The position numbers and the translations under genes are program-made. DNA of 64,000 nucleotides from the IMG/VR virus record IMGVR_UViG_3300020148_000032, one strand, 5' to 3'. Source of the stretch: a virus. Taxonomy: Duplodnaviria; Caudoviricetes. The notes under the pieces are model-generated. The model was not told the origin of the DNA, did not search any database, and saw only the letters and a list, made by a program, of their open reading frames with translations. This document shows positions 1,577 through 63,775 of this stretch, piece by piece (positions within the stretch are counted from its first letter, which is position 1; the number at the start of each line of letters is the position of its first letter).

Positions 1577-1762
1577 ATGATGACACTCACTCGGGCAATG
1601 ATGGTTTTTTCTCTTTACATGATTTCTTTTATCTCGTTTGTATTTTTTGCACTGGCGGCAGGTGGAGTTTTCATTGTTGAGGGTGATTACACTATGATTG
1701 GACTTGCATCTTCTATATTTTCAATGGTGCTGGCTCTAATCATGGACCGCCCTAACGTGTGA
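1577..1762 (+). CDS. small two-TM membrane protein
   Basis: hydrophobic 61-aa ORF with AAGGA RBS. Confidence 0.6.
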   Translation: MMTLTRAMMVFSLYMISFISFVFFALAAGGVFIVEGDYTMIGLASSIFSMVLALIMDRPNV

Positions 1763-1936
1763 AGCAAAAAGAACTCTGGGGTCAACATTTATTTGGTTGA
1801 CCCCAAACAGGGCGTTATTATTCACAACTTCTGTGTTAACCCCACGAGTACTACTCTCTTCGCAATAACAACATTGTTCTTATTCGAGAGAACGCGGATC
1901 TTTTTATAAAGGCTTGCCCTGCATAAAACTAAAGAA

Positions 1937-1976
1937 AACTCTTAAGGCACCCCTTTCTATGGGTGCCTTAAGAGTT
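1937..1976. terminator. intrinsic terminator-like hairpin
   Basis: aactcttaaggcaccc...gggtgccttaagagtt between convergent genes. Confidence 0.75.
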
Positions 1977-2295
1977 AGAGATAAAAATCTACTCTACGCG
2001 GATGTCTTTCCATGTAATATTTATCTTGTCGTGAGTGATCAAGTATGAAACCGAATCGAGAGTAGAAATCACGCAATTGTTCGTTATTCATACCTGGAGC
2101 AAATTGTGCAGCTTCAAGGATAAGGGTTAACCCGTTCTTATCAGCATACTCACAAAGTTTAAGGAATAGGCCGGTTGCATGACCTTCTTTCTTCTTTCGT
2201 GAGTAGACCTCACTCACTGTTGCTCTCTTTGTGTTTTCCCACATCACTAATCTTGCCGATGCTGAATCACAAAAGAATTCAATCTCATCATTCAT
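1975..2295 (-). CDS. GNAT-like acetyltransferase
   Basis: KKEGHATGLFLKLCEYAD...LILEA...LRDFYSRFGF pattern. Confidence 0.7.
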   Translation of the reverse strand: MNDEIEFFCDSASARLVMWENTKRATVSEVYSRKKKEGHATGLFLKLCEYADKNGLTLILEAAQFAPGMNNEQLRDFYSRFGFILDHSRQDKYYMERHPRRVDFYL

Positions 2296-6511: not shown

Positions 6512-7396
6512 CTAAGCGTTCTTCTTCCTATTATCACTATCAATAGAGAGAGTTAAAGCTACAGAATAGATTGAAAGAACCTCAGCTAAAGCAAAAGGGT
6601 AAAGAAGCATAGTGAACAATGTGCCTACTGCCCATGAAATAATGAATGTAAGGTTGAAAGAGAAAAAGACGAAGAAAAGAGTAGTAAGCCCTATAATGGC
6701 AGTAAGGAAAGGGATTACTCTCATGATTGTCTCTAGAGCAACAATTTCTACTTTAGATTCATTAAGTTTTTGAGTAGTTAACTTTTCACTTTCTTGAATA
6801 TTAATAGTAAGAGAATGGTCAGGTTTATCAAACAAGTCATATCTTTGCACTAAAGCGTTAATTTTAGGGCTTTTAAGATCTTCAATTTTTGAAATCTTTG
6901 TAATTCCCCATATAAGAAATAGAACTGCAAGGACCCCCAAACCTATAGCAACAAATGCTGCAACTCCTTGTAAAATAGAAATAATTTTTTCGTTTACATG
7001 AATAGAATCTTTGAAAAGATAAAGAAGAATGCTAGAAGCAATGATAAAGAATGCTGAAATGAAAGAATTGATAATGAACGAGTTCCTTCGAGCGGTTGGA
7101 GTCACTTTATCTTGCCACAAGGTTTCATTTAACGATTCTTCACGAGTATAAAAATCTGTTTCTTTAATAAGAGTATAATTACTAATCTTGTACCCGTCTT
7201 GTCGGTTATTAAATTCATAACCGATGGCGTCAATAACAAACTTTTCAGTATCTTGAATTTTTAAAGACGGGTGCGGCTCACCAATATATTTGATCGTCTG
7301 CTCTGGTATTTTTGCCCAAGATAACCTGTATTCTGAATGGTAAGTTTCTGATGGTTCAATCTTTGCACTATTCGCCGCGATAAAAAAGTTCTTCAT
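6512..7396 (-). CDS. four-TM membrane protein, paralog of 5609-6499
   Basis: same architecture as the adjacent gene. Confidence 0.75.
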   Translation of the reverse strand: MKNFFIAANSAKIEPSETYHSEYRLSWAKIPEQTIKYIGEPHPSLKIQDTEKFVIDAIGYEFNNRQDGYKISNYTLIKETDFYTREESLNETLWQDKVTPTARRNSFIINSFISAFFIIASSILLYLFKDSIHVNEKIISILQGVAAFVAIGLGVLAVLFLIWGITKISKIEDLKSPKINALVQRYDLFDKPDHSLTINIQESEKLTTQKLNESKVEIVALETIMRVIPFLTAIIGLTTLFFVFFSFNLTFIISWAVGTLFTMLLYPFALAEVLSIYSVALTLSIDSDNRKKNA

Positions 7397-7409
7397 AACA
7401 TTTTCCTTA

Positions 7410-7898
7410 CTATTCAGACTTACTCATTTTATCAAGACCGCAATGTAATCCTTTTGGAGCTAAACGCTCTTTAAGAAGCCTTTCAGAAACTGAGTCCTCG
7501 TGAGAATTCTTAACGAATTCCAAGATTTCGTAGAGAGTAATGACTTCATCAAGAGGTAAAGTAAATGTAAGATCTTGATCATTTAACCTGTGAGAAAGTT
7601 CTTGGTCGAACCTTTTGAAAATAACAATCAAATTTTCAAGAGCTCTAGAGTTTAAAATACCTGAAGTTAAAACAAAACCTTCCCAGTAATATGTAGCGAA
7701 AAAGTCTACCAGAGTGTCAAATTCTGACCTGTTAAGAACTACTTTTGAATCCTTCTTCTCTCTTAACCTTTTGAAATCATTGAGTTGTCTCTCCTCTTTA
7801 AGCTTTTCATACATGTATTTCAGATCAATAAAGCTGCTATTTTTATGCATATTTAATACCCCAACTCTCAAGAAAGCTATCTTTAAAATTAGAGCCAT
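7410..7898 (-). CDS. hypothetical protein (start probably ~7850)
   Basis: DFFATYYWEG motif resembles DFADNYLWDG of the adjacent gene. Confidence 0.6.
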   Translation of the reverse strand: MALILKIAFLRVGVLNMHKNSSFIDLKYMYEKLKEERQLNDFKRLREKKDSKVVLNRSEFDTLVDFFATYYWEGFVLTSGILNSRALENLIVIFKRFDQELSHRLNDQDLTFTLPLDEVITLYEILEFVKNSHEDSVSERLLKERLAPKGLHCGLDKMSKSE

Positions 7899-8310
7899 CT
7901 ATTATTGGGAAGTTTTTGTCAATGTCAGGGAAGCCTTCCCTAATAGCAAAAGTCTCATTTGACTCTCTCAGCAAAAAGTCAGAATTATTCCGGCTATTTT
8001 TAAGATTTTCGAGAGCCAAGGCTTTGTCAGATGAATTAACAAAAAGGTGGATTGTATACAATTGAAGTATTCTATCTTTCGTTTCATTAAACACTAATCT
8101 GCCTTGGTCATTTGGAGCGATTTTTTCTAAATACTCATAAAGATATTCAGATATGTCTCTCATCTGGTCAATATCCCAGTAACCACTACAGGACTTCCAA
8201 CCATCCCACAAATAATTGTCAGCAAAGTCAAAAATTTTCTTTAAGTCTTCTTGTTTGATCGAATACCGACTCAAGCGTAAAAGCTTTTGAAAAAGTTCAT
8301 CTGGATTCAT
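7843..8310 (-). CDS. hypothetical protein
   Basis: GAAAGGGA RBS; weak paralog of 7410-7898. Confidence 0.65.
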   Translation of the reverse strand: MNPDELFQKLLRLSRYSIKQEDLKKIFDFADNYLWDGWKSCSGYWDIDQMRDISEYLYEYLEKIAPNDQGRLVFNETKDRILQLYTIHLFVNSSDKALALENLKNSRNNSDFLLRESNETFAIREGFPDIDKNFPIIDGSNFKDSFLESWGIKYA

Positions 8311-8424
8311 GATTGTCCCTTTCGTTAAATGCGTCGAGATAAAAAGAGAAAGGTTCTTTTCCCTTCAAGCTCGATAATCTATTATCCTTAGAGTTCCAAT
8401 ACCCTAGAGTAGCAATAATAGTAT

Positions 8425-8952
8425 TCAAAAGATACCCCAATAAGACACATTGTCAGAGTGATCCCAATAACCCACCTCTTCATCGACGAAAAGACGCGCG
8501 TGACCGGCTGGGTAAACACATTGATGTTCTGGGTAAGTCGGGTTTACTTTTCCGCAAATTCCATTAGGGTCCGATTCATAATCAATCCCAAGACCATCAA
8601 GAGTTAACTTGTAAATTCCAATGGCTTCTTTCAACATTTCAGAATTAAGATCATTCCTCTTGAAGATTGCCCGTCCAATAAGAGTAGCGTTCTCCTTAAG
8701 TTCTTCGTAAGAGAGAACAGAATTGAAAAGTCTTTCTTCAGATGAAACTCTCACATATTGAGCCCTCTTCACAAGTTTCTGCAAATCATCTTTAGGCAGA
8801 TTCAAGAAATCTTGCACATCCCGAGCCATTTCAGTGTCTGCCTGCCACAATGAGAAGGCAAACCTCACGTCTTTGTTCTTTACTTTCGTTTCTAGAATTC
8901 TAGAAACTTTCTTCGCGTTCTTTTTCGAAAGCGTGTTAAAAATGAGATCCAT
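8425..8952 (-). CDS. hypothetical protein with C-terminal C/H cluster
   Basis: C-x10-C-x4-H...H at the C-terminus. Confidence 0.65.
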   Translation of the reverse strand: MDLIFNTLSKKNAKKVSRILETKVKNKDVRFAFSLWQADTEMARDVQDFLNLPKDDLQKLVKRAQYVRVSSEERLFNSVLSYEELKENATLIGRAIFKRNDLNSEMLKEAIGIYKLTLDGLGIDYESDPNGICGKVNPTYPEHQCVYPAGHARLFVDEEVGYWDHSDNVSYWGIF

Positions 8953-8955
8953 TAT

Positions 8956-9288
8956 TTACTCCGTAAAACTGTCAACAAATTGAAGGGAAAGTGAAATCTT
9001 TGTTCCGTATTCTCGTTCTTCCTCAGCTCTAGAACCGTAGGGGAACTGAACTTCGAAAATTTCTTTCCGGAGGATAAGGGTGGGGTATTCTTTATCAGCT
9101 TGAATCCAACCAGAATAAACTCCGGTCTCATCCTCTTGAATGAGAACCTTCTTTACAGTATCTCCAGGATTAAGGTAGAATTCGATAGCTCTACGCTCTT
9201 GAACTGGGAATACATTCGTAAAGTTTTCAACCGAAGTCTCGATTCCGCCTTGAACAATGACGTAACCATTCCATACTCTCTTATTCAT
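8956..9288 (-). CDS. hypothetical protein
   Basis: 110-aa ORF directly downstream of a sigma70-type promoter. Confidence 0.7.
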   Translation of the reverse strand: MNKRVWNGYVIVQGGIETSVENFTNVFPVQERRAIEFYLNPGDTVKKVLIQEDETGVYSGWIQADKEYPTLILRKEIFEVQFPYGSRAEEEREYGTKISLSLQFVDSFTE

Positions 9289-9321
9289 AACGAGACCCTT
9301 CCGGTTATAGTACTTAGTACT

Positions 9322-9350
9322 ATCCTAACAAATTATTACTCTCGCGTCAA
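9322..9350 (-). promoter_or_regulatory. sigma70-type promoter
   Basis: TTGACG-17nt-TAGGAT with TG extension, upstream of 9288. Confidence 0.65.
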
Positions 9351-9864
9351 TAGGGAGTTTTACATGCTTCTCTGTTCTGGCTTACTCGAAAATATGGAAC
9401 GGAAACTTCTAGAATCTTTCATTAATATTATGGAAGGGACAAAAGTCTTGCGCACTTTGCATCTTCATACTCGTACTCTCCCTAACGTTGACGTTGAAGT
9501 TTTTTTATGATTTAGGTTTTCAAGATCAGAATCAGAGAATCATGGGTAAGAAAGCTAAAGTGATTGCTTATTACATATTAGAATAGTGATAAGTCTAAAA
9601 TCTGGCGCGCTCTCATAAATACTCGTGTTATGGGAATCAAAGTTGAAATTGATAGAGGTAAGGGTGTCAAAATTAGGTTGCCAATTGGGACAAAGTGGAG
9701 ATGTAAATACGGACAGAAGTTTATCATCGTTGATAGAGAAATAGAATTCATTAGTCTTAATAAAGAGAGAAAGACTTACTTTCAGGAAATAGAATAAAAA
9801 AATCGTGTGTTTGATTTTTCTAAGAATCGTGTTATAGTAGTTCTTATCAACGAAAGGTTTTGAA

Positions 9865-10077
9865 ATGACTGTTCAGCTCTTCTTGCATTGGAAACTCTAC
9901 CTTTGAACCCCTCACTAAGGGACCCGAGAACATCGTTCTTGTTATCCACCTGGAGGAAGGATATCTTATGCTAAAAGTCCATCAATTTATGAATCGCTTG
10001 CGATCAATGAAAGATTCGCGGGCGGTCGAATTCTTAAAGTCTTTCGACATGACAAGGAATTTACCGTCTCATTCTGA
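9865..10077 (+). pseudogene. possible frameshifted small gene
   Basis: promoter-like sequence and GAAAGG RBS before the ATG; coding-like segments continue in alternating frames; hairpin follows. Confidence 0.3.
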
Positions 10078-10099
10078 AAGTAAGGATTCTTAACCCTCA

Positions 10100-10151
10100 T
10101 ACTTGAAAACCTTGGTAACTGCTATACTGCGGCTACCAAGGTTTTCAAGTA
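10100..10151. terminator. inverted repeat / terminator
   Basis: tacttgaaaaccttggta...taccaaggttttcaagta. Confidence 0.65.
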
Positions 10152-10255
10152 AATCCATATCGTTACACATGATAATCTAACAATGCTGAACTAACTTAGT
10201 CTCTTGCCGACTACACGTAAAAGAGTCGTACAATCGCGCGAGATATAGACAAGAT

Positions 10256-10804
10256 TTACAAAGAGAGAAACCTTCTCATCTCTTCTAAATTCTTTGGGGT
10301 TAACCCATTCTTACTCTCGCATTCAACAGCAAGAACGCGAGGGTCTTGAAACACTTCATGAGTTTTAGAATAATAAGAGAGCAAGTTTCTATAACTCTTT
10401 ATGTCATCATCACACCAAATTACTTTATCTTCAATAGAAAGCGAGTCAAGTAATTTTTTCACTCCCTCAATTTTCCACCAATACGTTAAATTTCTAGAGA
10501 CCGTCTCTCGAATCCAATCCCAATCAGACCCAAAACCAAGTTCTGGAGCAAGTATTGAAACAGCGCGATCCTTCCACGTGGTACACCACATTCCTTGCGC
10601 TCTAGATTCAGTTAAAAGCTCTTTCAATTCTTTTACTAGATCTTTCGAATAACACACATCATAGACTCCAGCAAGCGTTGTACGAATCCACGATTCTTTA
10701 TCCCAATGAGAGAGATCCTCGTCTGAATCTGGGAGAGCATTCACAACACCATCAATGTCAAAGAGAATAAAAACTTTACCTTCGCTCAGAGTCATTTTTC
10801 TCAC
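10256..10804 (-). CDS. HAD-superfamily phosphatase (HAD_SAK-like)
   Basis: FDIDGVVN, WCTTW, K, VIWCDDD motifs. Confidence 0.85.
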   Translation of the reverse strand: MRKMTLSEGKVFILFDIDGVVNALPDSDEDLSHWDKESWIRTTLAGVYDVCYSKDLVKELKELLTESRAQGMWCTTWKDRAVSILAPELGFGSDWDWIRETVSRNLTYWWKIEGVKKLLDSLSIEDKVIWCDDDIKSYRNLLSYYSKTHEVFQDPRVLAVECESKNGLTPKNLEEMRRFLSL

Positions 10805-10851
10805 CTTTCAAAAGTTCCTCAAAAAGATTATAACGAGAGTTACTCTCTTAC

Positions 10852-10888
10852 TAGCAAACCGCCACCGCATAATGGTGGCGGTTTGCTA
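10852..10888. terminator. intrinsic terminator-like hairpin
   Basis: tagcaaaccgccacc...ggtggcggtttgcta. Confidence 0.7.
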
Positions 10889-10904
10889 TTCAAACGTTCA
10901 AAAC

Positions 10905-11348
10905 CTATCGCTCAATCACAACCTCGGTGGACTTGTTGATGATGGGGAACCAACTGAACAGACCAACACGATAGCCAGTTGTTTCGAAAGTGTAAGTCTC
11001 CCCAACAGTGATGCTTCCATAAATGTCGGCAGAGTTCGTCACGCCCTCGAACCAGTTATCCTTCACTAAGAGAACACCGCAATTGTCAGTGTAAATCCTC
11101 ATGGAGGACAAACCTCCCGAGTTACTCGTGCGATCCTTGTCAGTCACCACACAGTTCTCAAAAGTGCGGACGGGGGAAACATATTGTCCGATTGAGAAGA
11201 GACCAAAAACAATGACCCCAACAAGACCGATAACAAAGAAAACCCTCCCCGAGCTTACATGCGAACTGCGGGACTTATTCCAAGAGGTCTCAACAGTATT
11301 GAATTTTCCGCGGCTCATTTGTCCAGGGAAGAGATATGCCTTACCCAT
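10905..11348 (-). CDS. membrane-anchored phage-type protein
   Basis: one TM followed by VTDKDRT...YTD.CGV...D....SADIYG...G.TY...TTG.R...FSWFP. Confidence 0.7.
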   Translation of the reverse strand: MGKAYLFPGQMSRGKFNTVETSWNKSRSSHVSSGRVFFVIGLVGVIVFGLFSIGQYVSPVRTFENCVVTDKDRTSNSGGLSSMRIYTDNCGVLLVKDNWFEGVTNSADIYGSITVGETYTFETTGYRVGLFSWFPIINKSTEVVIER

Positions 11349-11378
11349 TGCGTCACTCCTTAATAGTTGTTAATCACT

Positions 11379-11408
11379 ATTATAATTGAAACGAATAAGG
11401 CTTGTCAA
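11379..11408 (-). promoter_or_regulatory. consensus sigma70 promoter
   Basis: TTGACA-18nt-TATAAT upstream of the AAGGAG RBS of 11348. Confidence 0.8.
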
Positions 11409-11723
11409 TATCTCTCTTACTTTAAAAGCCACCCGTAGGTGACCTCTAAAGAATTAGTGTTAAAACTAGCTCTAGTCATTCAGAATGACGATAATGAAAG
11501 CCAACCCAAAGGGCGAAAACTCCACCATCCACACTCTCAATCTGAAGTCACTCAAGACTCATCAAAACTTTTAATAATCTACTTATAGTTTGACAAGTCC
11601 ACCTGAAAGTTACCTTAAAAGGAAACCACAGTTGGCTCGCCACGGGTGAGGTTCTAACAGCATATTAGTACTCCACTGACGCATTATTCGTTCCTCAAAT
11701 TGAACCCGGGCGCGCCCAGTTAA

Positions 11724-12326
11724 TCAACCCTCTTCAATTCGTGATCTGACAGAACGAATACGTGCGCGCAAAGCCTCACGGAGCTCGTCAACAAGGTCCA
11801 AACTAGCATAACCCCACCCGTCAGCCATAACAGTAACAGTTTTATCAGACGAGAACACAATTGCACTAAAAGGAACAAGTGCTCCATTAGACAACTTCAC
11901 GTAATAGTCCTTGAAAATAAGGTCATCATCGCTAGGGTCGGAACCCGAGTTCTCGGACAACCAACTTAATTCGGCAAAGACTTCGAAAGCACTTTTAGGA
12001 GCTTCTTCAATGACATTCGCGCCACTCTCAATTGTCACGACCGAATCAATCATCACTGGGTCCTCACCAAGGTTAAAAGCTCCGTCCCCATTCAAACCAA
12101 CCCACGAACCAACAGCCCAACCAACACCACCCCGACGCTTTAACTCTTCCCACTCTGAATTCGTACCACCCGCAAAAATAAAAACCTGCTTCGCATTCAA
12201 ACCATCAAAAAGAATCGCGGGAGTCAGATTGATCCCACACTGGTCAAAAAAAGCAACCCACTGTAAAGAATCATTCGAGCCCTCGCTCTTATACTTCGCA
12301 AGATTATCAATCATTATGAAACCCAC
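11724..12326 (-). CDS. hypothetical protein
   Basis: 200-aa ORF with G/T-ending codons. Confidence 0.65.
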   Translation of the reverse strand: MGFIMIDNLAKYKSEGSNDSLQWVAFFDQCGINLTPAILFDGLNAKQVFIFAGGTNSEWEELKRRGGVGWAVGSWVGLNGDGAFNLGEDPVMIDSVVTIESGANVIEEAPKSAFEVFAELSWLSENSGSDPSDDDLIFKDYYVKLSNGALVPFSAIVFSSDKTVTVMADGWGYASLDLVDELREALRARIRSVRSRIEEG

Positions 12327-13196
12327 TAACCAATTCTAGAGAATTAATCATCACAAGAACTCTTCGTGAACCCCGCAAGGGTGTCCCCCTTTAAAAAGTT
12401 TCTCGCAACAATACTTCTTACCTATTAAATATTATACATAAAAGAAAGGAGAAGTACAATACTTCTCATCACAAAATTAAAAAGACCAGCCTTTTCAAAT
12501 TGACGATTACTTGCAATCTAAATTGACGACCCAAATACCAATTCCACATTTCAAAAAAAAAGAAAACAACAATGACATTCAGAAACTCCAGAATGTTCAC
12601 ACGCCAGAGGACACGACAAGCAAGTAAGATCACGCTCTCAAACAAAAACGGATTTTCACTAATTACCTAATGACAGTCCACCCCTGCAAACACTATTCAC
12701 AAAAACAACCTAAAGGTTCACGACAACCTCGGAACCATCAGGAAGGGTTACAACCGCCACCTGCGAATCCTTATCAATCACGCGAACAAGCACATTCACC
12801 ACAACAAGACCCACTTTCAAAAAGACTTTGATAAACCTCTGGACTAGCGTCAAGACCCTTCAAAACCCCGCACCGTCAAAAACCGCAGTCTCCCAGGATC
12901 ACAACTAAAGACGAACAACGCATCACGGTTTGACTAAAACACTGTTAGAACAAGAACCACTGTTTCTCATAAACACACTAGGTAATAACAAGCAATGACC
13001 CCTGCTAACAGTTTTCAATAATCAAAACAAGTGACTCTACAACCAACCAATCCTTAAAGTTTTATCAAACCCGAACCCTCACCGAGAGGTTTGACAACCG
13101 CTCCCTCATAAACATTTTTTAAAAGTGGCGCCACCCAGTGGATAAATGGTAAAGCCCCTCAACACGCTAGACTCTTTGAAAATTAAAAACAGTAGT

Positions 13197-13568
13197 CTAA
13201 CCCTCGGGGTACAATATAGAGAACGCTGACTGCTCGGGTAATTCACCGAACAAGTAAATCGCATCAGCATAAAACGCAAGGACATCCGCGTGACAAGGCA
13301 ACGGTGCGCAAAAACACTGGAGTCTTTTACCCTGTAAAGACACCACACTATCCAACAAATCAGAGGTTGCAAGAAAATACTCTTCAAACCTTCGAATCAC
13401 AACCTTTCGAGATTCAAGTTTCTCCTCCCGCGACGAACCAGTCAAAGGGTACGGGTTACCCCACTTTGAACCACGACCAACATACACATCAAACGGTGTC
13501 TTATGAAACTTATTCACAACAAGAGTAGGCGTGAAACCAAGACTGTCCACTTTCAACCCGCTTTCCAT
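13197..13568 (-). CDS. DUF4326 family protein
   Basis: DVYVGRGSKWGNPY and LQGKRLQCFCAPLPCHADVL motifs. Confidence 0.9.
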   Translation of the reverse strand: MESGLKVDSLGFTPTLVVNKFHKTPFDVYVGRGSKWGNPYPLTGSSREEKLESRKVVIRRFEEYFLATSDLLDSVVSLQGKRLQCFCAPLPCHADVLAFYADAIYLFGELPEQSAFSILYPEG

Positions 13569-13999
13569 TCTACAAACCTACCCTCTAGTTAAATGTAGAT
13601 CAAATCACCATGCAATCAAAAACCCTTAAACATTTTACCAACAATCAACATAGCGACAATCATCAAGCACAATCGAGTCAGGAGCGGTAATTCACACAAA
13701 CTTTCACAAACACTTTCACAAACACTTATTCCCTCAGCCTCCCCGCCATCAAAAAATCATTATTCAATTTTTATGCTCGTTCGCTAAAAACAAATAGAAT
13801 CCAAAATCAACACAAAACCCTACGCTCACAACCAACACCACCACACAAACAACACTGAACACGCAGACAACCTTTACCACCACAAAAATAAAAACCCTCA
13901 CAATTACGCTTACCACACTCACACAAACAACCACCAAACATCAAAAAAAATCAACCCAAAAAATAAAAAAAAGAAAAAAAAAAGAAAACAACCCTGACA

Positions 14000-15150
14000 T
14001 GGGGAACACTCCAGCGACAGCTGCCACTAGCCACCCTCCACTTACTCTCACTCTAACCACCAAGTGGTCGCCACCCGATGCCACCACTAACCACCGCTTT
14101 TAGACCCCAACGCTTTTAAAGTCCGCTCGCTTTAACAAGCTTTCACCAACACGACAAGTGCCACCCCATATTCTGAACCCCCAACCCCAATAGGGGCTTT
14201 AACCGGCTTTTACAAGCACCGAGGGTCTCACTCACCCAGGCTCAGGCGGACCGGGGTCCGCCTTCGCCACTGGCCTCCACTATACCAACGAGTAGTTCCA
14301 ATCACTCTACAAGTCACTAGGTGTCACGTCCACGCTTGCTCGAGACGTAGCCCAGTGTTCCAATGACACACTCTACACTGTCAGTCACACCTGCGCACTC
14401 GAGTGCCCCCTTCGGGGTTCATCTCGCACCCAGTTGTTCCTACCAAGTGCTTCACGAGTGTGCCACTTCCACACGACCTACTAGCAGCATGTCCGGACAC
14501 CATCGCTCCTTGAGAGCGCCTTCCACTACTCGAGGTACCGTTCCGGACCAGGACTCCCCGCCAAGGGTCCAGCCACCCCAAGTGGGGTGGCTACCCTCGC
14601 GGTCCGTCAAGCGCCGGACCACCACCTTCACCACTAGGGGTCCATGGCTTCCAACAGCCCTTTACCAAGTTTCCGGAAGGGCCAAGTCTTTACTCCCTTA
14701 CCGCTCTGCCCAAGCACAAGTCTACCGTCACCGCCCCAGGGGAGTGCACCGGCGCGAGGCACGCCGGGAGGCGTGCAGAGTGCCAAGGTGCACACGAGCC
14801 AGAGGGGTGAGGACCGGTCCACAGCGAGCACCGCGAGCGTGTGGAGTTGTCCGGTCCACCACTCGGGCGAGTAAGCCACCAAGGAGTGCCGCGCCACGGG
14901 GACGGGGAGCCACAAGTCGTGGAGCGAGGCGACCGGGTAGCAGCGGTGAACTTTTCAATCAGTTTTAGTAAGTGTTGGAAGTTCACCGGTGCGGACCGGT
15001 TGGCGAGCGTAGCGACCTTGGGGTGGACCGGACCACTAGAGTCACTATGAACGAGTAGCACCAAGTAGTGGTGGTAGGGTGAGTAGTGACTCTATGGCTA
15101 CGAGCGGAGTGAGTAGTCCCGGAACGAACGGTAGTGAGGTCCGCGGGTTT
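14000..15150. other. non-coding GC-rich structured island; candidate replication/transfer origin or large structured RNA
   Basis: much higher GC than flanks, many hairpins, repeated GGACCGG, located at a C/A-rich to G/T-rich strand switch. Confidence 0.55.
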
Positions 15151-15387
15151 GGGTTGTTCTTTGATTAATATAGTAGTATTGTGTTTTTGAGGTTTTTGTT
15201 TTAGTAAACGTATTTTTTGTTGGCTATAAGTGGGACTTAGTTTAGTCCGATATTATTTGTGTTGGGAAACTCTGCTGCTACTGGTATTGGTAGTGTGGGT
15301 AGTGGTGTGTTGAGTTTAGTTTGTAGTATATACTATGTATGTAAGACGCCGTTTCACAGTTGAGGTTTTAGCAAGGTTGGTGTTATT

Positions 15388-18300
15388 GTGAATGATAATC
15401 CGTTGAGTGGTTCTAGTGACTCTAGTGATGTTTCTAAGAAGTTTGTGGTACGTGATCCTTTGAATTCTAGAAAGCCGAACCCTTTGAGTTCTCGTGGTAT
15501 TGAGGGTGATGGTGTTATTGATTCTGAACTTGAGAGCAGTGATCCTCATTTTGTGAGTGATGCTTCTAGAGTGAAGAGGGTTGTTAAACCTTTTGCTCCT
15601 AAGGGTTTTGGAGTTCTTGGTTCGGATGATGGTGGAGTAGAATCAGGTGTTGTTCCTGAGGGTGTTGTTCCGGTTAAGCGTCAGGGTCCTGTTTTTAATT
15701 CTAAGAAGGTTGAGGATTTTGGTAGAAGTCGTGTGGCGAGTGAGACTTCTAATAGTGTTGTTCCAGTTGTTGAAAGTGGTGACTCTGGAGTTGTAATTGG
15801 TGTAGAGGGTGGCGAACTTGTTGTGCCTGTTGTGGAGGGTGATGCGGCTCTTGAGTCTGGAATTGGCATTCCTGAACCTGTTATTCATGATTTTGGTGGA
15901 GAGCCTGTTGGTGTTTTTGCTCTTGATTTTAATTCTGTTGGTGGAGATTCTGTTGCTGAGTTCTCTATTGATGATGTTCTTGGAGAGAGTATTGTTCCTG
16001 TGGTGAATGATTTAGTGACCCTTAGTGATGAGGAGGGTCATCATGTGGATGCTCGAGTATTGAGTGTTGGTGTTGATGGTATTGTGAGTGCTCTTGTTGA
16101 TTTTGATTCTTGGCGTGAGGTACCTTTTGGTTCTTTCGATAGTGATTCAAGTGGCGTGGGTTCTGGCGAGGATGATTTTGGCTCTTTTTATTCGAGTGAT
16201 GGACCTGTTAGTGATGACTTTGTGGATGAGGATCCTGTTGGAGAGGATGAGCAGTATTCTTGGGATGAGGAATCTGATTATGTGAGTGAGGGTGGTATTC
16301 CTGGTAGAGTAACTCCAGAGTTCGAGAGCGAATCTTTGGTTATTGAACCTGTTGTTAGTGATGTTTTAGATTCTAATAGTGATTCTGCTAGTGTGGTGAA
16401 CCCTTTTATAGATAGTGATGATTCTGAACTTTCGGGTGATGATTTGGGAGAGGGTGAGGTTGCTGGAGTTGTTAATGATGAACTTGAGGGTGATTCGTTT
16501 GTTGGTTCTGGTGATGATTCTTTAGTTGGTAGTGGTGATTCTCTTTCTCGTGAGCCTTTTAATCCTTTTGTGGATGATGATGGAGTCGAGTATTCTATTG
16601 ATGTGAGCGGTCTTTCTGGAGGTGACTCTCGTTTTGTTGAGAGAGATGAGGATGATAGTGATGGCGTTTTTGAGGGGTTTGATTCACAGCTTGATCAAGT
16701 GTTGAGTGATGATGAGGATGCTGTTGCGGGTAGAGTTTCGAGTAGTGAGAGTGGTGAGGGTGAGAGCGAAATCATTGTTAGTGATGAACCTGTTGAAGCT
16801 TTTAATCCTTTTGTGGGTGATGATGAGGGTGATTTTGATGAGTCTGGTGACTCTTTTGTTGAGGAAGTTGTTGATTCTCGTGGGCGTGTGAGTGAGCCTG
16901 GTGGGGGAGATAACCCATTTATTGGTAGTGATAGTGATGATTTGCCTTATCGTCCTAGGTTGGTTGATGGTGTTCCTGAGCGTGAGTTGTTGCCAGAGGG
17001 TGCTTTGAACCTTGTGAATAGGGTTCGTGAGACTAGTGTGGAGGATCGTGAGCGTATTCAAGCGGCTCGTGAGAAGGGTTCTTTAACGAAGTCTGGAGTT
17101 TTTGATAGTGATTTTAGTCCTAAGAGGGTGACCGAGGTTGTGGTTGATTCTCGTGGTAGGGGAAAAACTCGAGGTAAGGATCCACTTGTGAGGGGTGAAC
17201 CTGAAGGTGAGGGTTCTGGTGAAGAGTTTGGGTCACCTTCGGATTGGGTTGGAGCTACCCCTGTGAGGGAGCGCCAGCGTTACCAGTGGACTCGTGGTGA
17301 TGGTCGTTTGAATGGTAAAGAGTTAGAGTTTTTTAGGAATTTAGAGTTAAGTAAGTCAGAGTTCCAGCGTCGTGGAGATAGTGCGGTATTGTTGAGGAAG
17401 CCTGCTGGTGGTAATGAGAGTGAGGCTGAGCGTAAGGAGAGGGTGAAGCGCCTTACGAGAGCTATTGGTGGTCGTGAGGCTTTAGAACGTGGTACTCGTT
17501 TTCGTTTTGGGTGGAAGGAACGTGAGGTGTTAGAGTTCCTTGCAATGTTTAGGTATGCTACAGCTAAGCATTTGTCTCGAATGTTTAGTGAGGCAGAGTC
17601 TACCATGTATAAGAGGTTGAAGAAACTTCGTTTGCAGGGTCTTGTTATTGATAAGAAATTGTATGGGGCTCGTCCTATTTGGTTCCTTACTGAGGCTGGT
17701 CTTGTGGTAAGTGGGTTTGATTTACCGAGGGTTATCGAGTCCAAGTTAACTTTTAGTATGTTCCCTCACCAGTTCACGGTGAATAATACTGCGGCTAATT
17801 TGTGGGGAGCTAATGTTGATGTGTTGCATTTAGATAATTTTCCAGAGCGTAATCGTGAGGATGAGAAGGGTAATCCACGGTTTGGTGAGAAACTTGTGAG
17901 TGAGTTAGAGATCCAGTCATCGTTTGGTAAGTTGAAGATGTTTGATAAGAGTGATGTGTATAGACCACAGATTATTGGTCTTATTGAGCGTGAGTTTGCT
18001 GCTTGGGAAGAGGCCGGTGGGGTAGAGTTTGGACCTAGTCCAGAACAAGTGTATGGTAATGAGTACATGTGGGCTTTAATGCCTCCTTATAATGTGAAGT
18101 TGGCTTATCACGTTCCTGATTTAGTGGTAAAGCGTCCTCGTAATAGTGATGGTACTCCTAATAGTATTGCTGTTGAGATTGAGATTAATAATAAACCTAG
18201 TGCTAGTTATGAGAAGACTTTAAGGGCGTACTTGTTGGACTCCAGGTTGTATTCAAAAGTGATTTGGGTGTGTAAGAATGTTGGGCCTGCTCGAAAGCTT

Positions 18301-19872: not shown

Positions 19873-20056
19873 ACATTGGAGTGTAATGATGAATTTTGAT
19901 GCTTATTATAATGATTCACCTATTTATCGTTGTAAGAAGTGTGGTAAGCGGAATGTTGTTGTCTTTGGTAATCTCCCTACTGACTCGAATTTTAAGTGGA
20001 AAGAGTAACATCTTTTTGAAACTTTTTAGAAAAATCATCTAAATTGGAGTCTTTTT

Positions 20057-25861: not shown

Positions 25862-26173
25862 ATGCCAAAATTTCATATTAATAATAGCGGGAACGTAGGT
25901 ATCTGTGAAGCACTACAAGGCAATTGCCCTTTTGGCGGCCCAGAAGATCATTATGATTCTATAGTTTCAGCAGCCCGTGCTTTTGAAAAAGAGATGGAAA
26001 ACCAAGCCTTCTCTCAAATGTCAAATACACAAAAGAATGATCTCTATTCCATTGCTATGGACGGGGATGAGGCTTATCACACGGGGCAATCCGTCCACAG
26101 CAATCCCCACCCTGAGGGCTCTCCGGAGTACGAGGTTTGGCTAGACGCTTTCAATAACCCCTCGGATCGTTAA
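25862..26173 (+). CDS. HCCH-module protein #2
   Basis: KFHINNSGNVGICEA...CPFGG...HY; 3' part is GC-richer. Confidence 0.8.
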   Translation: MPKFHINNSGNVGICEALQGNCPFGGPEDHYDSIVSAARAFEKEMENQAFSQMSNTQKNDLYSIAMDGDEAYHTGQSVHSNPHPEGSPEYEVWLDAFNNPSDR

Positions 26174-26253
26174 ATAGACGAAGAGAACATGCCCTACTAC
26201 GAGTCAACGGATGAGAATTTAGCTGAGCAAGAGGCTGAACATAGGAGAACAAT

Positions 26254-57590: not shown

Positions 57591-58418
57591 ATGACTACTT
57601 ATCACATTAATCCTAAAGGTGAGCTCACTTCTTGTAAAGCTGAATACAGGTGCCCTTTTGAAGGAGTATCTTTACACTTAGAGGCGGAATCTTTAGCTGA
57701 CGCTTATTCGCAATATGAGGAGAAGCTTCGTTCTTTTTATGAGAAAGAGATAAATAACACTACGGCAGAAGACTCTGAAAGAATTAGTGAAGAATTTTAT
57801 GAAAACGGCGAAGTGACCGTTGATGGATATCTCTTTAAAAAAGTATATAATGAAAGAAGTTATTCTTACCAGGCAGTATATTCGGTACCTAATAGCATTT
57901 ATGATGAAGAAATAGTCGTTAATGCTAATGACATAAACAATTACGAATCTGCTTATATTAAGTCTCCTTATAAAGAATTACAACGAATGTCTCTAGAAAA
58001 TCTTAATGGTGAAGAATCAATGGGCTTGAGTATCTTAAAAACTGTAAAAGAGCTAAAAGAGAATAGTGGAAAGTATTTCCCCCAACAAGATGAACTTTTA
58101 GAAGAATACAAGAAAATAGAATCGCAAACGGAAGCATATATTCCTGAATATGATCTAAAGTTAGAAAGAACTGGTTATTCTAGTCCAGAAACTTATGAAG
58201 CCGAAGATGATGAAAACATTGCATATTTACGAGTTCGTTGGGGTGTTGCTAGTCTTAAAATAATACGAAAAGATCAATCCTCTGACGATCAAAAGAACGA
58301 AGTTCAATATGATAAAGTCATTGGAGATTCTCTTCAAGGGAGTTTTGATGATACAACACAAAGAAATATTTTCTTGACTGAAGCTTCTTTATATTTTAAA
58401 AATGTGCGTAAGACTTAA
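57591..58418 (+). CDS. HCCH-module protein #12
   Basis: YHINPKGELTSCKAEYRCPF....H. Confidence 0.8.
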   Translation: MTTYHINPKGELTSCKAEYRCPFEGVSLHLEAESLADAYSQYEEKLRSFYEKEINNTTAEDSERISEEFYENGEVTVDGYLFKKVYNERSYSYQAVYSVPNSIYDEEIVVNANDINNYESAYIKSPYKELQRMSLENLNGEESMGLSILKTVKELKENSGKYFPQQDELLEEYKKIESQTEAYIPEYDLKLERTGYSSPETYEAEDDENIAYLRVRWGVASLKIIRKDQSSDDQKNEVQYDKVIGDSLQGSFDDTTQRNIFLTEASLYFKNVRKT

Positions 58419-58453
58419 TTAGAAAAGTTTATAACTATTTGTTGGAGAATATT

Positions 58454-59275
58454 GTGTCAAAATTTCATATTAATAGTAAAGGTGAACCTGGAATTTGCAA
58501 AGCAACAAGCGGTAGTTGTCCATTCGGTTCTGTCGAAGAACACTATTCTTCTAAGGAAGAAGCAACTCTTGCATATGAGAAAGCTCAAGAAGCAAACCTT
58601 GTCTCTACTTTGAAAAGAATTGCTGATTCAGATGATCCGGGGCCGCGTCGCATGGCGGCCAAGAACCATCGCACCCCAACAGAAGTACTGACACAGCTGG
58701 CATCGGACAGGGACATGTACGTGCGCCGGGCGGTGGCCGGGAACCCGAGTGCTCCAGCAGAGGTGCGGGTACAGTTGGAGTCGGATAAGGAGGCGACCGT
58801 GCGCACTGGCGTGGCCTACAACCCCAATACCCCCGCGGAGACGCTGGAAGCGCTGGCGTCGGACAGGTCCGCGGACGTGCGCCACTGGGTGGCCCGGAAC
58901 CCGATCACCCCAGTGGAGGTGTTGGTGGTGTTGTCGTCGGACGAGGACAGTGGCGTGCGCTGGTACGTGGCCCAGCACCCGAACGCCCCAGCGGAATCAA
59001 TGCCACTGCTGGCATCGGATGAGAACAGATGGGTGCGGCGGGCGGTGGCCGAGAACCCGAGGGCTCCCATCTCCGTTGTTGCGGAGCTCATGGGTGATAG
59101 CAGCCCTCTTATCGCATCTACTGCCCGCAATCGGTTCACCTTGTGGGCGCAGAAATCACTTGATCTTGGTTCTGTTCCCACTGGGCAACTCATTGACAGG
59201 TTGGTGGCGCTGAAGGCGTGGGAGTTGGACCCCAAGGACCCGGCTGTCACTGCTGCTGTTGTGTTGTGCAACTGA
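58454..59275 (+). CDS. HCCH-module protein #13 fused to GC-rich LRV/HEAT-like repeats
   Basis: GTG 58454 after GGAG RBS; about seven 24-aa repeats L.SD....VR..VA.NP..P. Confidence 0.85.
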   Translation: MSKFHINSKGEPGICKATSGSCPFGSVEEHYSSKEEATLAYEKAQEANLVSTLKRIADSDDPGPRRMAAKNHRTPTEVLTQLASDRDMYVRRAVAGNPSAPAEVRVQLESDKEATVRTGVAYNPNTPAETLEALASDRSADVRHWVARNPITPVEVLVVLSSDEDSGVRWYVAQHPNAPAESMPLLASDENRWVRRAVAENPRAPISVVAELMGDSSPLIASTARNRFTLWAQKSLDLGSVPTGQLIDRLVALKAWELDPKDPAVTAAVVLCN

Positions 59276-59507
59276 GCACCGAATACTGTGTGCCGGCATG
59301 GCCAGATGCACCGCCCCTAAGTTCGCCATCACTATTTACTTCGTTTGCTAATTGTATTATCTTTACTCAAGAATATCTTTCAAACCCAGAAAGTATTTAC
59401 CAATTTTAAAATGAGAAGGATTAACAAGCTCTTCTAATAGGGATATTATTTCATACCTTTCGTAAGAATGATTTAGAAAAGTTTGTAACTATTTATTGGA
59501 GAATATT

Positions 59508-60200
59508 ATGTCAAAATTTCATATTAACACTAAAGATGGAACTGTAGGTCTTTGTAAAGCAACTAAAGGTCAATGCCCTTTTGGTGGAGAAAGTGAACAT
59601 TATCCTTCAATTGTAGAGGCGGCTAAAGGTTACGAATTAATGATGAATTCTGAAACTATTAATACTGTTTCTAAGAATGAAATGAAAATACCTTTTGTTT
59701 CTGTTGAAAATTACGAAGTATCTAAAGAAACGCTTAGAGGTCGAGATTTTGATGATTTTATTCATTATGACTCTCAAAGAGCTTCTGATTATCTTAACTT
59801 AAGAAATAGCGCTGGTCCAGTGGTTACTCATAAAGAGGCGAGAGATATAGCGTATACAATAAAATTGATAAGAGAAAACCCTGCTTTAAGAAGAAAATTC
59901 TCTGAAGAAACCCTAGGAAATGAAGATGATTTTTATGATATTTCAGTTCAATTCATAAAAGACAACTATAAAGACACTTTATATCATACTCTTTATAGTT
60001 CTAAAGAATTAGAAGAAAATATTTGGGAGAATCTTAATAATGCAATAAATGCTAAAAGGCCTTTTGGCTTCCCAGAGGATGAAATGACTCGTTATCAACA
60101 AAATGCTAATGAAAAAGGTTATGTTGAAGCACTAAAGACACTTACAGGTCTAGATGAAACTGAAGTTCGAAGAATTGCTTTAAATAAAGAATACCTTTAA
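59508..60200 (+). CDS. HCCH-module protein #14
   Basis: leader nearly identical to #13; KFHINTKDGTVGLCKATKGQCPFGG...HY. Confidence 0.8.
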   Translation: MSKFHINTKDGTVGLCKATKGQCPFGGESEHYPSIVEAAKGYELMMNSETINTVSKNEMKIPFVSVENYEVSKETLRGRDFDDFIHYDSQRASDYLNLRNSAGPVVTHKEARDIAYTIKLIRENPALRRKFSEETLGNEDDFYDISVQFIKDNYKDTLYHTLYSSKELEENIWENLNNAINAKRPFGFPEDEMTRYQQNANEKGYVEALKTLTGLDETEVRRIALNKEYL

Positions 60201-60724
60201 GAAATAATATCTAATTCTTTAAGTCTCTCTTCAATAATATTAGTTGGAACTTCATACACTTTTGCGAGCATTTCTACTGCTTGAAAATAAGAGAATACAT
60301 TGAACAAATCAGAGTAGTCCTCTTCTATCATTGAAGACGGAAGAAGAATTTCATGTGCAAAAACGAATGCATCTGTCCCTTTTAATGATTCATAACTATC
60401 TATAGGGATAAGAATACTTTCGGAATCTTTATAAAAGTTTCTTTCATAGAGAGAATACCACAACATTGCATAAGAATAAATTTTGAATAAATAAAGCGGG
60501 TTCTTGTTAGAGACACCTATATAATCTCCCGAAGGGTGTCTACCTCTAAAATTAATATAAGCATCTAGATTTTTATTTGGGAAGAGTTTACTTTGTGTTT
60601 GAAAAACTCTCAATGTCAAACCAAGATCATTAAAAAGTATGATTGGATCAACACTCTCTGAAAAGCTTTCAATAACTGCTAAAGCTTCCTTTACTGGATC
60701 TGAAGATGTGAATTTAGAAAGCAA
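60197..60724 (-). CDS. degenerate ImmA/IrrE-like protein
   Basis: VDP....LGL, A..FAHEILLP, LA..YEVP...IEERLKEL; HExxH replaced by YAMLW. Confidence 0.55.
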   Translation of the reverse strand: MLSKFTSSDPVKEALAVIESFSESVDPIILFNDLGLTLRVFQTQSKLFPNKNLDAYINFRGRHPSGDYIGVSNKNPLYLFKIYSYAMLWYSLYERNFYKDSESILIPIDSYESLKGTDAFVFAHEILLPSSMIEEDYSDLFNVFSYFQAVEMLAKVYEVPTNIIEERLKELDIIS

Positions 60725-62791: not shown

Positions 62792-63775
62792 TTAATCAGT
62801 AGTATCGTAAGTGATAGAGATAGTACCTTCGTCCGCATCATATTGATGGCGAATGAAGTTATATCTGTTGTAATATGTATAGAGGTTATTTACATCATCA
62901 AGTGTTAAACCGAATTCTGTAATTTTATCCTTATCAAGAGTAATCTTTGATTGTGAATAACCCCTAAATCTTCCTGATGGGTAAACTGTATTATTATTTT
63001 CTATAATTTCTTTTTGTAAATCTTCTAATGTGAGGTTTTTGCTGTCAGCGATATCTTTAGCCTTTAAAAGAGCGGCATCATAAGGAGAATTCTTCCTTAA
63101 ATCCTCCTTAGCAAAATCTGGTAGTTTTGGATTTAATACCATTTCTTTGTTTCTATAACCGGCTTCGTACATATCTCCAAGCATTTCAGGGGTAAGGTTC
63201 TCATTTTGATAAAGTCCAGAGTAAAGTTTATTTCTGACTTGTTCATCGTTTTCTTCGTTAATCTTTTTGAAAATGACAGGAAGATATTTTTCAGGAAATT
63301 TAGTAAGCTCATACCAATCTCGACCATCAAGTTTAATATTTAAATAAACAACATTTGGATCAATTTTCCCGGAAGCAATAACATCCCACTTGAACTCATC
63401 TTGTTGATATAAGAAGAAGTCTTGACGAACTGAATCACTAATTCTATTATTAGGATTTCTTAAAGCGCCTTTCATTTGAGTTCTACTAAGGAGATTCTTA
63501 TCTTTAATATGTTCGTCACCAATATAATTTTGACCATCGATAGTTCTGAAGGTACCTCTGAACATATAGTCAGTTTTTAGTTTCACTCTTAACTCATCAG
63601 GAGTGTACTCTATTTCTCTATTAGCAAACCCACCGTCTTGATTAAGTCTCTCGTAATGTTCACGGGCTGCTTCTTTCGTATCAAAATGGTCAGCAGCTCC
63701 ACCAAAAGGGCAAGGTCGTGTTCGCGCTCGGCAAGCGCCCGGCTCGCCGTTATTATTAACGTGGTATCTTGGCAT
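62792..63775 (-). CDS. HCCH-module protein #16
   Basis: RYHVNNNGEPGACRARTRPCPFGG...HFDTKEAAREHYE. Confidence 0.8.
   Translation of the reverse strand: MPRYHVNNNGEPGACRARTRPCPFGGAADHFDTKEAAREHYERLNQDGGFANREIEYTPDELRVKLKTDYMFRGTFRTIDGQNYIGDEHIKDKNLLSRTQMKGALRNPNNRISDSVRQDFFLYQQDEFKWDVIASGKIDPNVVYLNIKLDGRDWYELTKFPEKYLPVIFKKINEENDEQVRNKLYSGLYQNENLTPEMLGDMYEAGYRNKEMVLNPKLPDFAKEDLRKNSPYDAALLKAKDIADSKNLTLEDLQKEIIENNNTVYPSGRFRGYSQSKITLDKDKITEFGLTLDDVNNLYTYYNRYNFIRHQYDADEGTISITYDTTD

Follow-up and report, generated by a model that had tools for sequence, protein, structure and literature searches.

A native HCCH-module gene 5' end probably fused to captured high-GC LRV-repeat DNA in a giant AT-rich mobile element

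The gene located at 58454..59275 (+) of the DNA analysed here (the window, a stretch of 64,000 nucleotides from the virus record IMGVR_UViG_3300020148_000032) is in all likelihood a real chimera, composed of a native 5' part and the 3' part of a captured high-GC LRV gene. It forms a single open frame, with a GTG start at 58454 and a TGA stop codon at 59273-59275, and encodes 273 aa. The native leader (58418..58453), which starts directly at the stop codon of the gene 57591..58418, contains the box ATTAGAAAAG at 58418-58427, with one mismatch to T[TA]TAGAAA[AG], and the RBS GGAG at 58444-58447. Codons 1-60 (58454..58632) are AT-rich and encode a native HCCH module and a helical linker. They are followed by six 26-aa LRV repeats (58633..59110, residues 64-219, PF01816) and by a non-repeat C-terminal helical domain of 54-68 aa, which ends at the stop codon (59111..59275). 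A 3' flank having a GC of about 0.6 (59276..59326) appears to have come with the gene fragment; all these parts lie on the + strand. The closest paralog and the neighbouring gene have ATG in the same context, and the GTG start of the chimera suggests a possibly weaker translation.

The composition of the island was compared with that of its surroundings. In 200-bp windows the GC was 0.275-0.345 on the AT-rich left side (58300-58599), then 0.60, 0.69, 0.685, 0.645, 0.58 and 0.565 in succession over 58600-59299, and back down to 0.325 over 59300-59499. The rise, from about 0.32, occurs at 58633 and the fall at about 59326. Over 700 bp the island showed a GC of 0.62, the mean of the whole window being 0.376 (sd 0.051; about 36% GC overall). 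The GC3 was 0.18 in codons 1-60, 0.81 in the LRV part (0.69-0.92 in the six single repeats) and 0.62-0.63 in the C-terminal part (0.63 over 59111..59275), while 16 other genes, module genes included, gave 0.16-0.37, except for one 59-codon tail of 0.54. The GC3 shift indicates that codon choice was altered, beyond the amino-acid content alone. The 70 nt beyond the stop codon (59276-59345), which are non-coding, still had a GC of 0.54. Both composition and codon usage therefore deviate sharply, the non-coding 3' flank (0.54-0.6) included, as in a horizontally acquired island. The original prediction, made from the sequence alone, had placed AT-rich DNA in the first 60 or so codons, an abrupt switch at about 58634 and an elevated GC past the stop codon until about 59330; the sliding GC and GC3 analysis agreed with it, moving the switch to 58633 and the end to about 59326.

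One other patch of the window, at 14000-15140, is as GC-rich as the island. It consists of about 1.1 kb of non-coding DNA of 55-64% GC and is located exactly at the sign switch of the strand skew, with a CA-rich stretch on its left and a GT-rich stretch on its right. No Rfam match was obtained for it, and short inverted repeats only were present.

The left junction could be defined by comparison with a second gene, P0041. The sequence 58454-58632 is identical to the 5' end of that gene (L001 606-783) at 170 of 178 nt (95.5%), and the identity stops exactly at 58632, beyond which P0041 continues with an unrelated AT-rich tail of 205 aa. Since P0041 and the window's own proteins are both recorded with a longest contig of 436,884 bp, and the P0041-type locus has a depth similar to that of the window in three runs (5.7 vs 7.4-8.0 and 123.2 vs 114-117, each pair in the same run), P0041 most likely represents a paralog belonging to the genome of the window. 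The foreign DNA had been proposed to lie behind a promoter, an RBS and the module, and the native box, the RBS and the P0041-like module up to 58632 are in accordance with this. The 5' end of the chimera is itself a mosaic: from -47 to +53 it shares 83.5% identity with the leader of gene 59508, which follows it, and from +2 to +179 it resembles P0041. A putative microhomology at the left junction, the only candidate visible, is TC[A/G]GAT.

On the right side, the island is followed by 59327..59345 (+), a probable native remainder, its limit being taken from a loose end at 59327 in run X2; it possibly represents the final codons of the replaced cargo gene. Then comes the relic of a metallophosphatase-like gene, of which the last 21 codons or so and the stop are left (59346..59409, +). 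By tblastn the relic shows 79% aa identity over 24 residues (59335-59406) with the gene L001 2..502; the similarity begins at Ala-Asn-Cys, at 59346, and the DNA is 96% identical to L001 439-513. This intact homolog is located upstream of P0041 in the paralogous locus, and no intact copy was found in the window. The phosphoesterase-like relic next to the junction may stem from another event. Island-free sequence is thus available on both sides, through P0041 and L001 on the left and through the relic from 59346 on the right. With respect to the paralogous locus the native flanks have the order b...a, not a-b (joint of 59484 to 58455, with 28 letters between), which fits repeated rearrangement among module units. 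The next native unit (59410..60200, +) consists of a spacer, a box, an RBS and the module gene 59508..60200.

In run X2 a rarer contig was also observed, which matches from 59327 rightwards and continues leftwards into unrelated sequence of about 50% GC (AGGTTTGAACTGGACCGCTAAGAAGTCTGG) that is not present in the window. As a hint, this variant may represent either an allele lacking the island or a related element.

Regarding the origin of the foreign part, the best LRV proteins in the database share 41-47% identity with it, and none of those inspected carries the module. For the C-terminal domain (query 59069-59272), an exhaustive search of 1.84 billion representatives gave one related cluster, P0122, of 127 aa with one repeat (64% aa identity, 71% nt identity, E 1e-20). 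P0122 is located on the 62%-GC Logan contigs L002, L014 and L015, on which hmmsearch with the module HMM found no module. The dN/dS against P0122 is 0.32 and the dS 0.8, which means that the C-terminal domain is real and constrained and that P0122, being only distantly related, is to be discounted as the donor. In the compost run X4 several GC-rich variants of 58948-59290 were found (85-97% identity) with GC-rich continuations; these contigs can be aligned past the stop codon and have loose ends at 59256 and 59290. The closest relatives of the island, namely the P0122 contigs and the X4 variants, thus occur in DNA of donor-like composition, and the native context of the C-terminal domain is high-GC DNA. 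The claim that a foreign high-GC fragment is involved is upheld by the GC3 of the LRV part, by the GC-rich 3' flank and by this sole C-terminal relative; whether homologs on the donor side lack the module had also been raised, and both the P0122 contigs and the inspected LRV proteins do. The further description of the capture as being in progress is rhetorical, the island being already identical in several samples.

Two observations were made on these contigs. One compost contig of run X4 seems to skip 288 nt within 58755-59044, with 24 letters on one side; this would mean fewer LRV repeats, although the indication is weak. Next to the P0122 gene, L002 contains at 1715-2023 (-) a fragment with a Fic/Doc-like FDGNKRTA motif, for which no Pfam match was obtained at E<=0.01.

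Other searches for the source were negative. No match was found for 58633-59345 among phages and plasmids by blastn. A degenerate exact 20-mer gave 11 loci in GTDB genomes and JGI metagenome contigs, all of them due to chance and without homology. A region-restricted word search with the C-terminal domain returned nothing, though the exhaustive search had given P0122. Since no donor above 72% nt identity was found in phages, plasmids, IMG/VR, GTDB genomes, JGI contigs or the representatives, the direction and the mechanism of the event, as proposed below, are deduced from composition and from a single distant relative.

That the gene is native, its GC arising without transfer from an LRV motif rich in Ala, Arg, Pro and Val, is hardly credible. 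The LRV residues do use GC-rich codons, and codon positions 1 and 2 have a GC of 0.69 and 0.52; against this reading, however, the GC3 reaches 0.81 where native genes have 0.16-0.37, and the non-coding 3' flank is GC-rich too and has a homologous flank in the GC-rich compost contigs. An assembly error that combined reads of the AT-rich element with reads of a high-GC organism is also very improbable. The sequence does come from a metagenome assembly, and the two-copy module makes de Bruijn graphs branch at 58455-58632; but native sequence is present on both sides of the foreign piece, and a single Logan unitig of 7,631 bp extends from 58603 across the island and covers 7 kb of the AT-rich right flank, with 0 differences. 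Unitigs covering 58603-60300+ with 0 differences occur in runs X1 and X2. With 30 native letters left of 58633 the Logan unitig falls just below the threshold of 31 letters on both sides. The native stretch is cut short by the presence of the module in two copies, and the graph is interrupted only within 58455-58632, by k-mers common to both. The depths of island and left flank are equal in two samples differing 15-fold in depth (7.97 vs 7.36 and 117.4 vs 114.1). Three assemblies, which may all stem from one study, carry the join. Two contigs among them encode the exact 273-aa protein: a 63,254-bp ENA k141 contig, with 100% identity over 6,822 bp, and, from a separate assembly, one of 1,049 bp that spans both junctions and has one SNP. 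Moreover, in an independent JGI sample (L001) the other module variant, having 7 differences, is linked to the P0041 tail. Run X3 has no contig over 58633-59015, a gap that carries no weight. A check of the junction by spanning reads had been proposed; unitigs and assembled contigs cross it, and the objection that the join is an assembly chimera is largely refuted.

A third explanation, that a whole module-LRV gene was imported from a GC-richer related element and that its 5' part was later converted from the resident P0041, is unlikely, though better founded. Module genes do occur in a 52.5%-GC element (L016, seven within 10 kb), the amino-acid composition of some module proteins is of the GC type, and the mosaic 5' end, with its gene 59508-like leader and P0041-like module, shows that conversion between copies occurs. 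The P0041-type sequence, however, runs through the non-conserved linker up to 58632, and the foreign side offers no homology at which a conversion tract could have ended, so that an illegitimate join would be needed even then. In addition, LRV repeats, sought by PF01816 or by an LRV-like motif, were present in 0 of the best 120 of 392 module proteins, and the GC-rich contigs with the C-terminal relative show no module. A related element with a module-LRV gene as the donor is possible, the module family being found also in higher-GC elements such as L016.

According to the preferred reading, that of a native 5' part joined to captured LRV DNA, the 5' part, with its promoter-like box, RBS, 45-aa module and linker, would be a recent copy of that of P0041, and the former cargo would have been replaced from 58633 on by about 694 bp from a high-GC genome. 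The captured piece would be the 3' part of an LRV gene, cut near a repeat boundary and bringing six repeats, the C-terminal domain and about 50 bp of 3' flank. Because the join is in frame and lacks long homology, illegitimate recombination, at most guided by microhomology, is the most likely route, and the old cargo may have been deleted in the same event.

The nature of the repeats was established with Pfam. PF01816 (LRV) matched six stretches with an E value of 6.3e-33 (111.3 bits against a cut-off of 21.6), and PF25591 (LRV_2) scored 39.6 against a cut-off of 27. The original prediction of 24-aa LRV/HEAT-like repeats was thus right about the LRV family, while the period is 26 aa and not 24. 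At the DNA level no tandem repeat was detected in the island by TRF, because the repeats have diverged.

The AlphaFold2 model of the whole protein had a pLDDT of 93.5 and a pTM of 0.85, with a pLDDT of about 98 across the junction and in the solenoid. It consists of a beta-hairpin, a Cys loop, a helix (34-57), twelve short helices (62-212) and three C-terminal helices. The best PDB match of the model in Foldseek was 1lrv (E 3.3e-6, TM 0.55/0.63, 30% identity over 206 columns), followed by alphaRep and PP2A-A HEAT solenoids, and the predicted structure is a right-handed alpha/alpha solenoid like that of 1LRV. By its register, the native linker LVSTLKRIADSD corresponds to the second helix of an LRV repeat (L-x2-L-A-x-D-x-D). 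The fusion therefore looks structurally seamless in the model, with a single continuous solenoid predicted behind the module. Such a fit may have resulted from selection among random joins, or from the TC[A/G]GAT microhomology. The product would be a protein-binding scaffold, placed under the box of the module regulon and handled like the other module proteins. With the LRV protein of Azotobacter vinelandii (PDB 1LRV; PF01816) the chimera shares tandem LRV repeats and a predicted alpha-solenoid; unlike it, the chimera ends in a rare C-terminal domain and has the HCCH module in front in place of the N-terminal 4Fe-4S domain (PF05484, no match at E<=0.1).

At least 17 genes of the window open with the same module of about 45 aa, described by the pattern M-x-K-[YF]-H-[IV]-N-x2-3-G-x4-C-x-A-x3-4-C-P-F-G-x4-H-[YF]-x5-A-x3-[YF]-E. 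When the module of the chimera was aligned with 16 other copies from the window, H5, C15, C22 and H30 were invariant. AlphaFold2 predicted for the module alone a beta-hairpin, a Cys loop and a long helix (pLDDT 80). The module belongs to no family in Pfam, NCBIfam or PHROG and has no sequence match in the PDB; its fold gave no significant Foldseek match (Kunitz-like rows at E>1 were disregarded), and the ESM Atlas feature search gave scores of <=0.80, which reflect the LRV part only. By tblastn a module gene had no match among phages and plasmids. In IMG/VR neither the island protein nor the module had a relative, and a module 30-mer was absent as well. A sample of 401 genomes from the Allokutzneria phylum, which says nothing about hosts, did not contain the module, and a literature search gave nothing on the module or on these elements. 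The database holds 392 module proteins, with cargo that is varied or without Pfam match. As a working hypothesis, the module could be a docking or delivery tag, or a zinc-dependent binder.

The box T[TA]TAGAAA[AG] recurs in front of at least 10 other module genes, 25-40 nt upstream (e.g. at 20025, 50827, 53277, 57141, 57553 and 59472). It has 18 exact matches in the window, mostly upstream of module genes, 10.3 being expected, and is likely a shared promoter element. The 12-nt motif TTAGAAAAGTTT was rejected, as it is not general while the shorter box is.

Some other module genes of the window also deviate in composition. In the gene 25862..26173 the module has a GC3 of 0.27 and the tail one of 0.54, a weaker second case of a GC-richer tail; the raised GC persists through the spacer as far as the next module gene (25862-26235), and the RBS and module are 91% identical to those of that next gene, 26254. 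In the gene 62792-63775 (-) the module has a higher GC (0.51) than the cargo (0.33), and its residues resemble the modules of GC-richer relatives, so that module exchange between elements of differing GC is possible.

Among the genes of the window are those for type IIA topoisomerase subunits, NAD-ligase, RadA, RarA and two T2SSE-type ATPases; tRNA genes are absent from it. Pfam analysis of the genes around the chimera and of the neighbours of P0122 gave only a DsbA-like thioredoxin. The element is a giant one: the gene sits on the 436,884-bp contig, of about 36% GC, of an uncultured mobile element, and module-bearing relatives are found on metagenomic scaffolds of up to 764,730 bp. On the largest of these (L016, 764,730 bp, 52.5% GC) the seven module genes stand in a row at 6600-16900, adjoining genes for a 1,514-aa TrbL-like protein, an RNA ligase, an HNH protein, TnpB and a metallophosphatase.

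In polymorphic toxins and effectors such as Rhs, CdiA and MafB the N-terminal part is conserved and the C-terminal cargo is displaced. The present family is similar in having a conserved N-terminal module, carried by 17 copies in the window, many paralogs with unrelated C-termini, and remnants adjoining the gene. It differs in that the new cargo is an LRV solenoid and not a toxin, and is followed by the relic and a module gene, not by an immunity gene. The cargo, moreover, came from outside the family, from a genome of very different GC, and was joined without homology and not via a conserved pre-toxin motif; at the N-terminus stands an HCCH mini-domain that is undescribed. Homology-facilitated or microhomology-mediated illegitimate recombination inserts a foreign fragment while resident DNA is deleted. 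The features of the present locus are alike, with sharp junctions, no long homology, deleted resident DNA and an unameliorated composition. Short addressing signals on unrelated cargo are represented by the capsid-targeting sequence of T4 and by the XVIPCD of the X-Tfe type IV effectors. Here too a short shared part is present on many unrelated proteins of a mobile element, and the module-bearing elements encode pilus- and conjugation-type genes (the T2SSE-type ATPases, and the TrbL-like protein in a relative); in contrast to these signals, the module is a predicted folded Cys/His domain.

The formation of chimeric genes from horizontally acquired DNA and the replacement of C-terminal cargo are already known in principle. 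The new aspect is the context, that of an undescribed module in giant uncultured elements. The locus offers a natural snapshot of gene birth by fusion, in which the junctions, the sister gene, the relics and the unameliorated foreign part can all be seen, and it indicates that the HCCH-module family can gain cargo from beyond its own gene pool, besides the shuffling of paralogs. It is tempting to speculate, though doubtful, that the module genes form an open cargo-acquisition system, in which box, RBS, module and linker serve as a landing platform that tags DNA fragments of a high-GC, possibly actinobacterial, host. The foreign piece may offer a way to trace the host or the neighbours of these elements, and if the landing-platform reading were true, the captured LRV fragment would name the host lineage of the AT-rich elements of 0.3-0.8 Mb.
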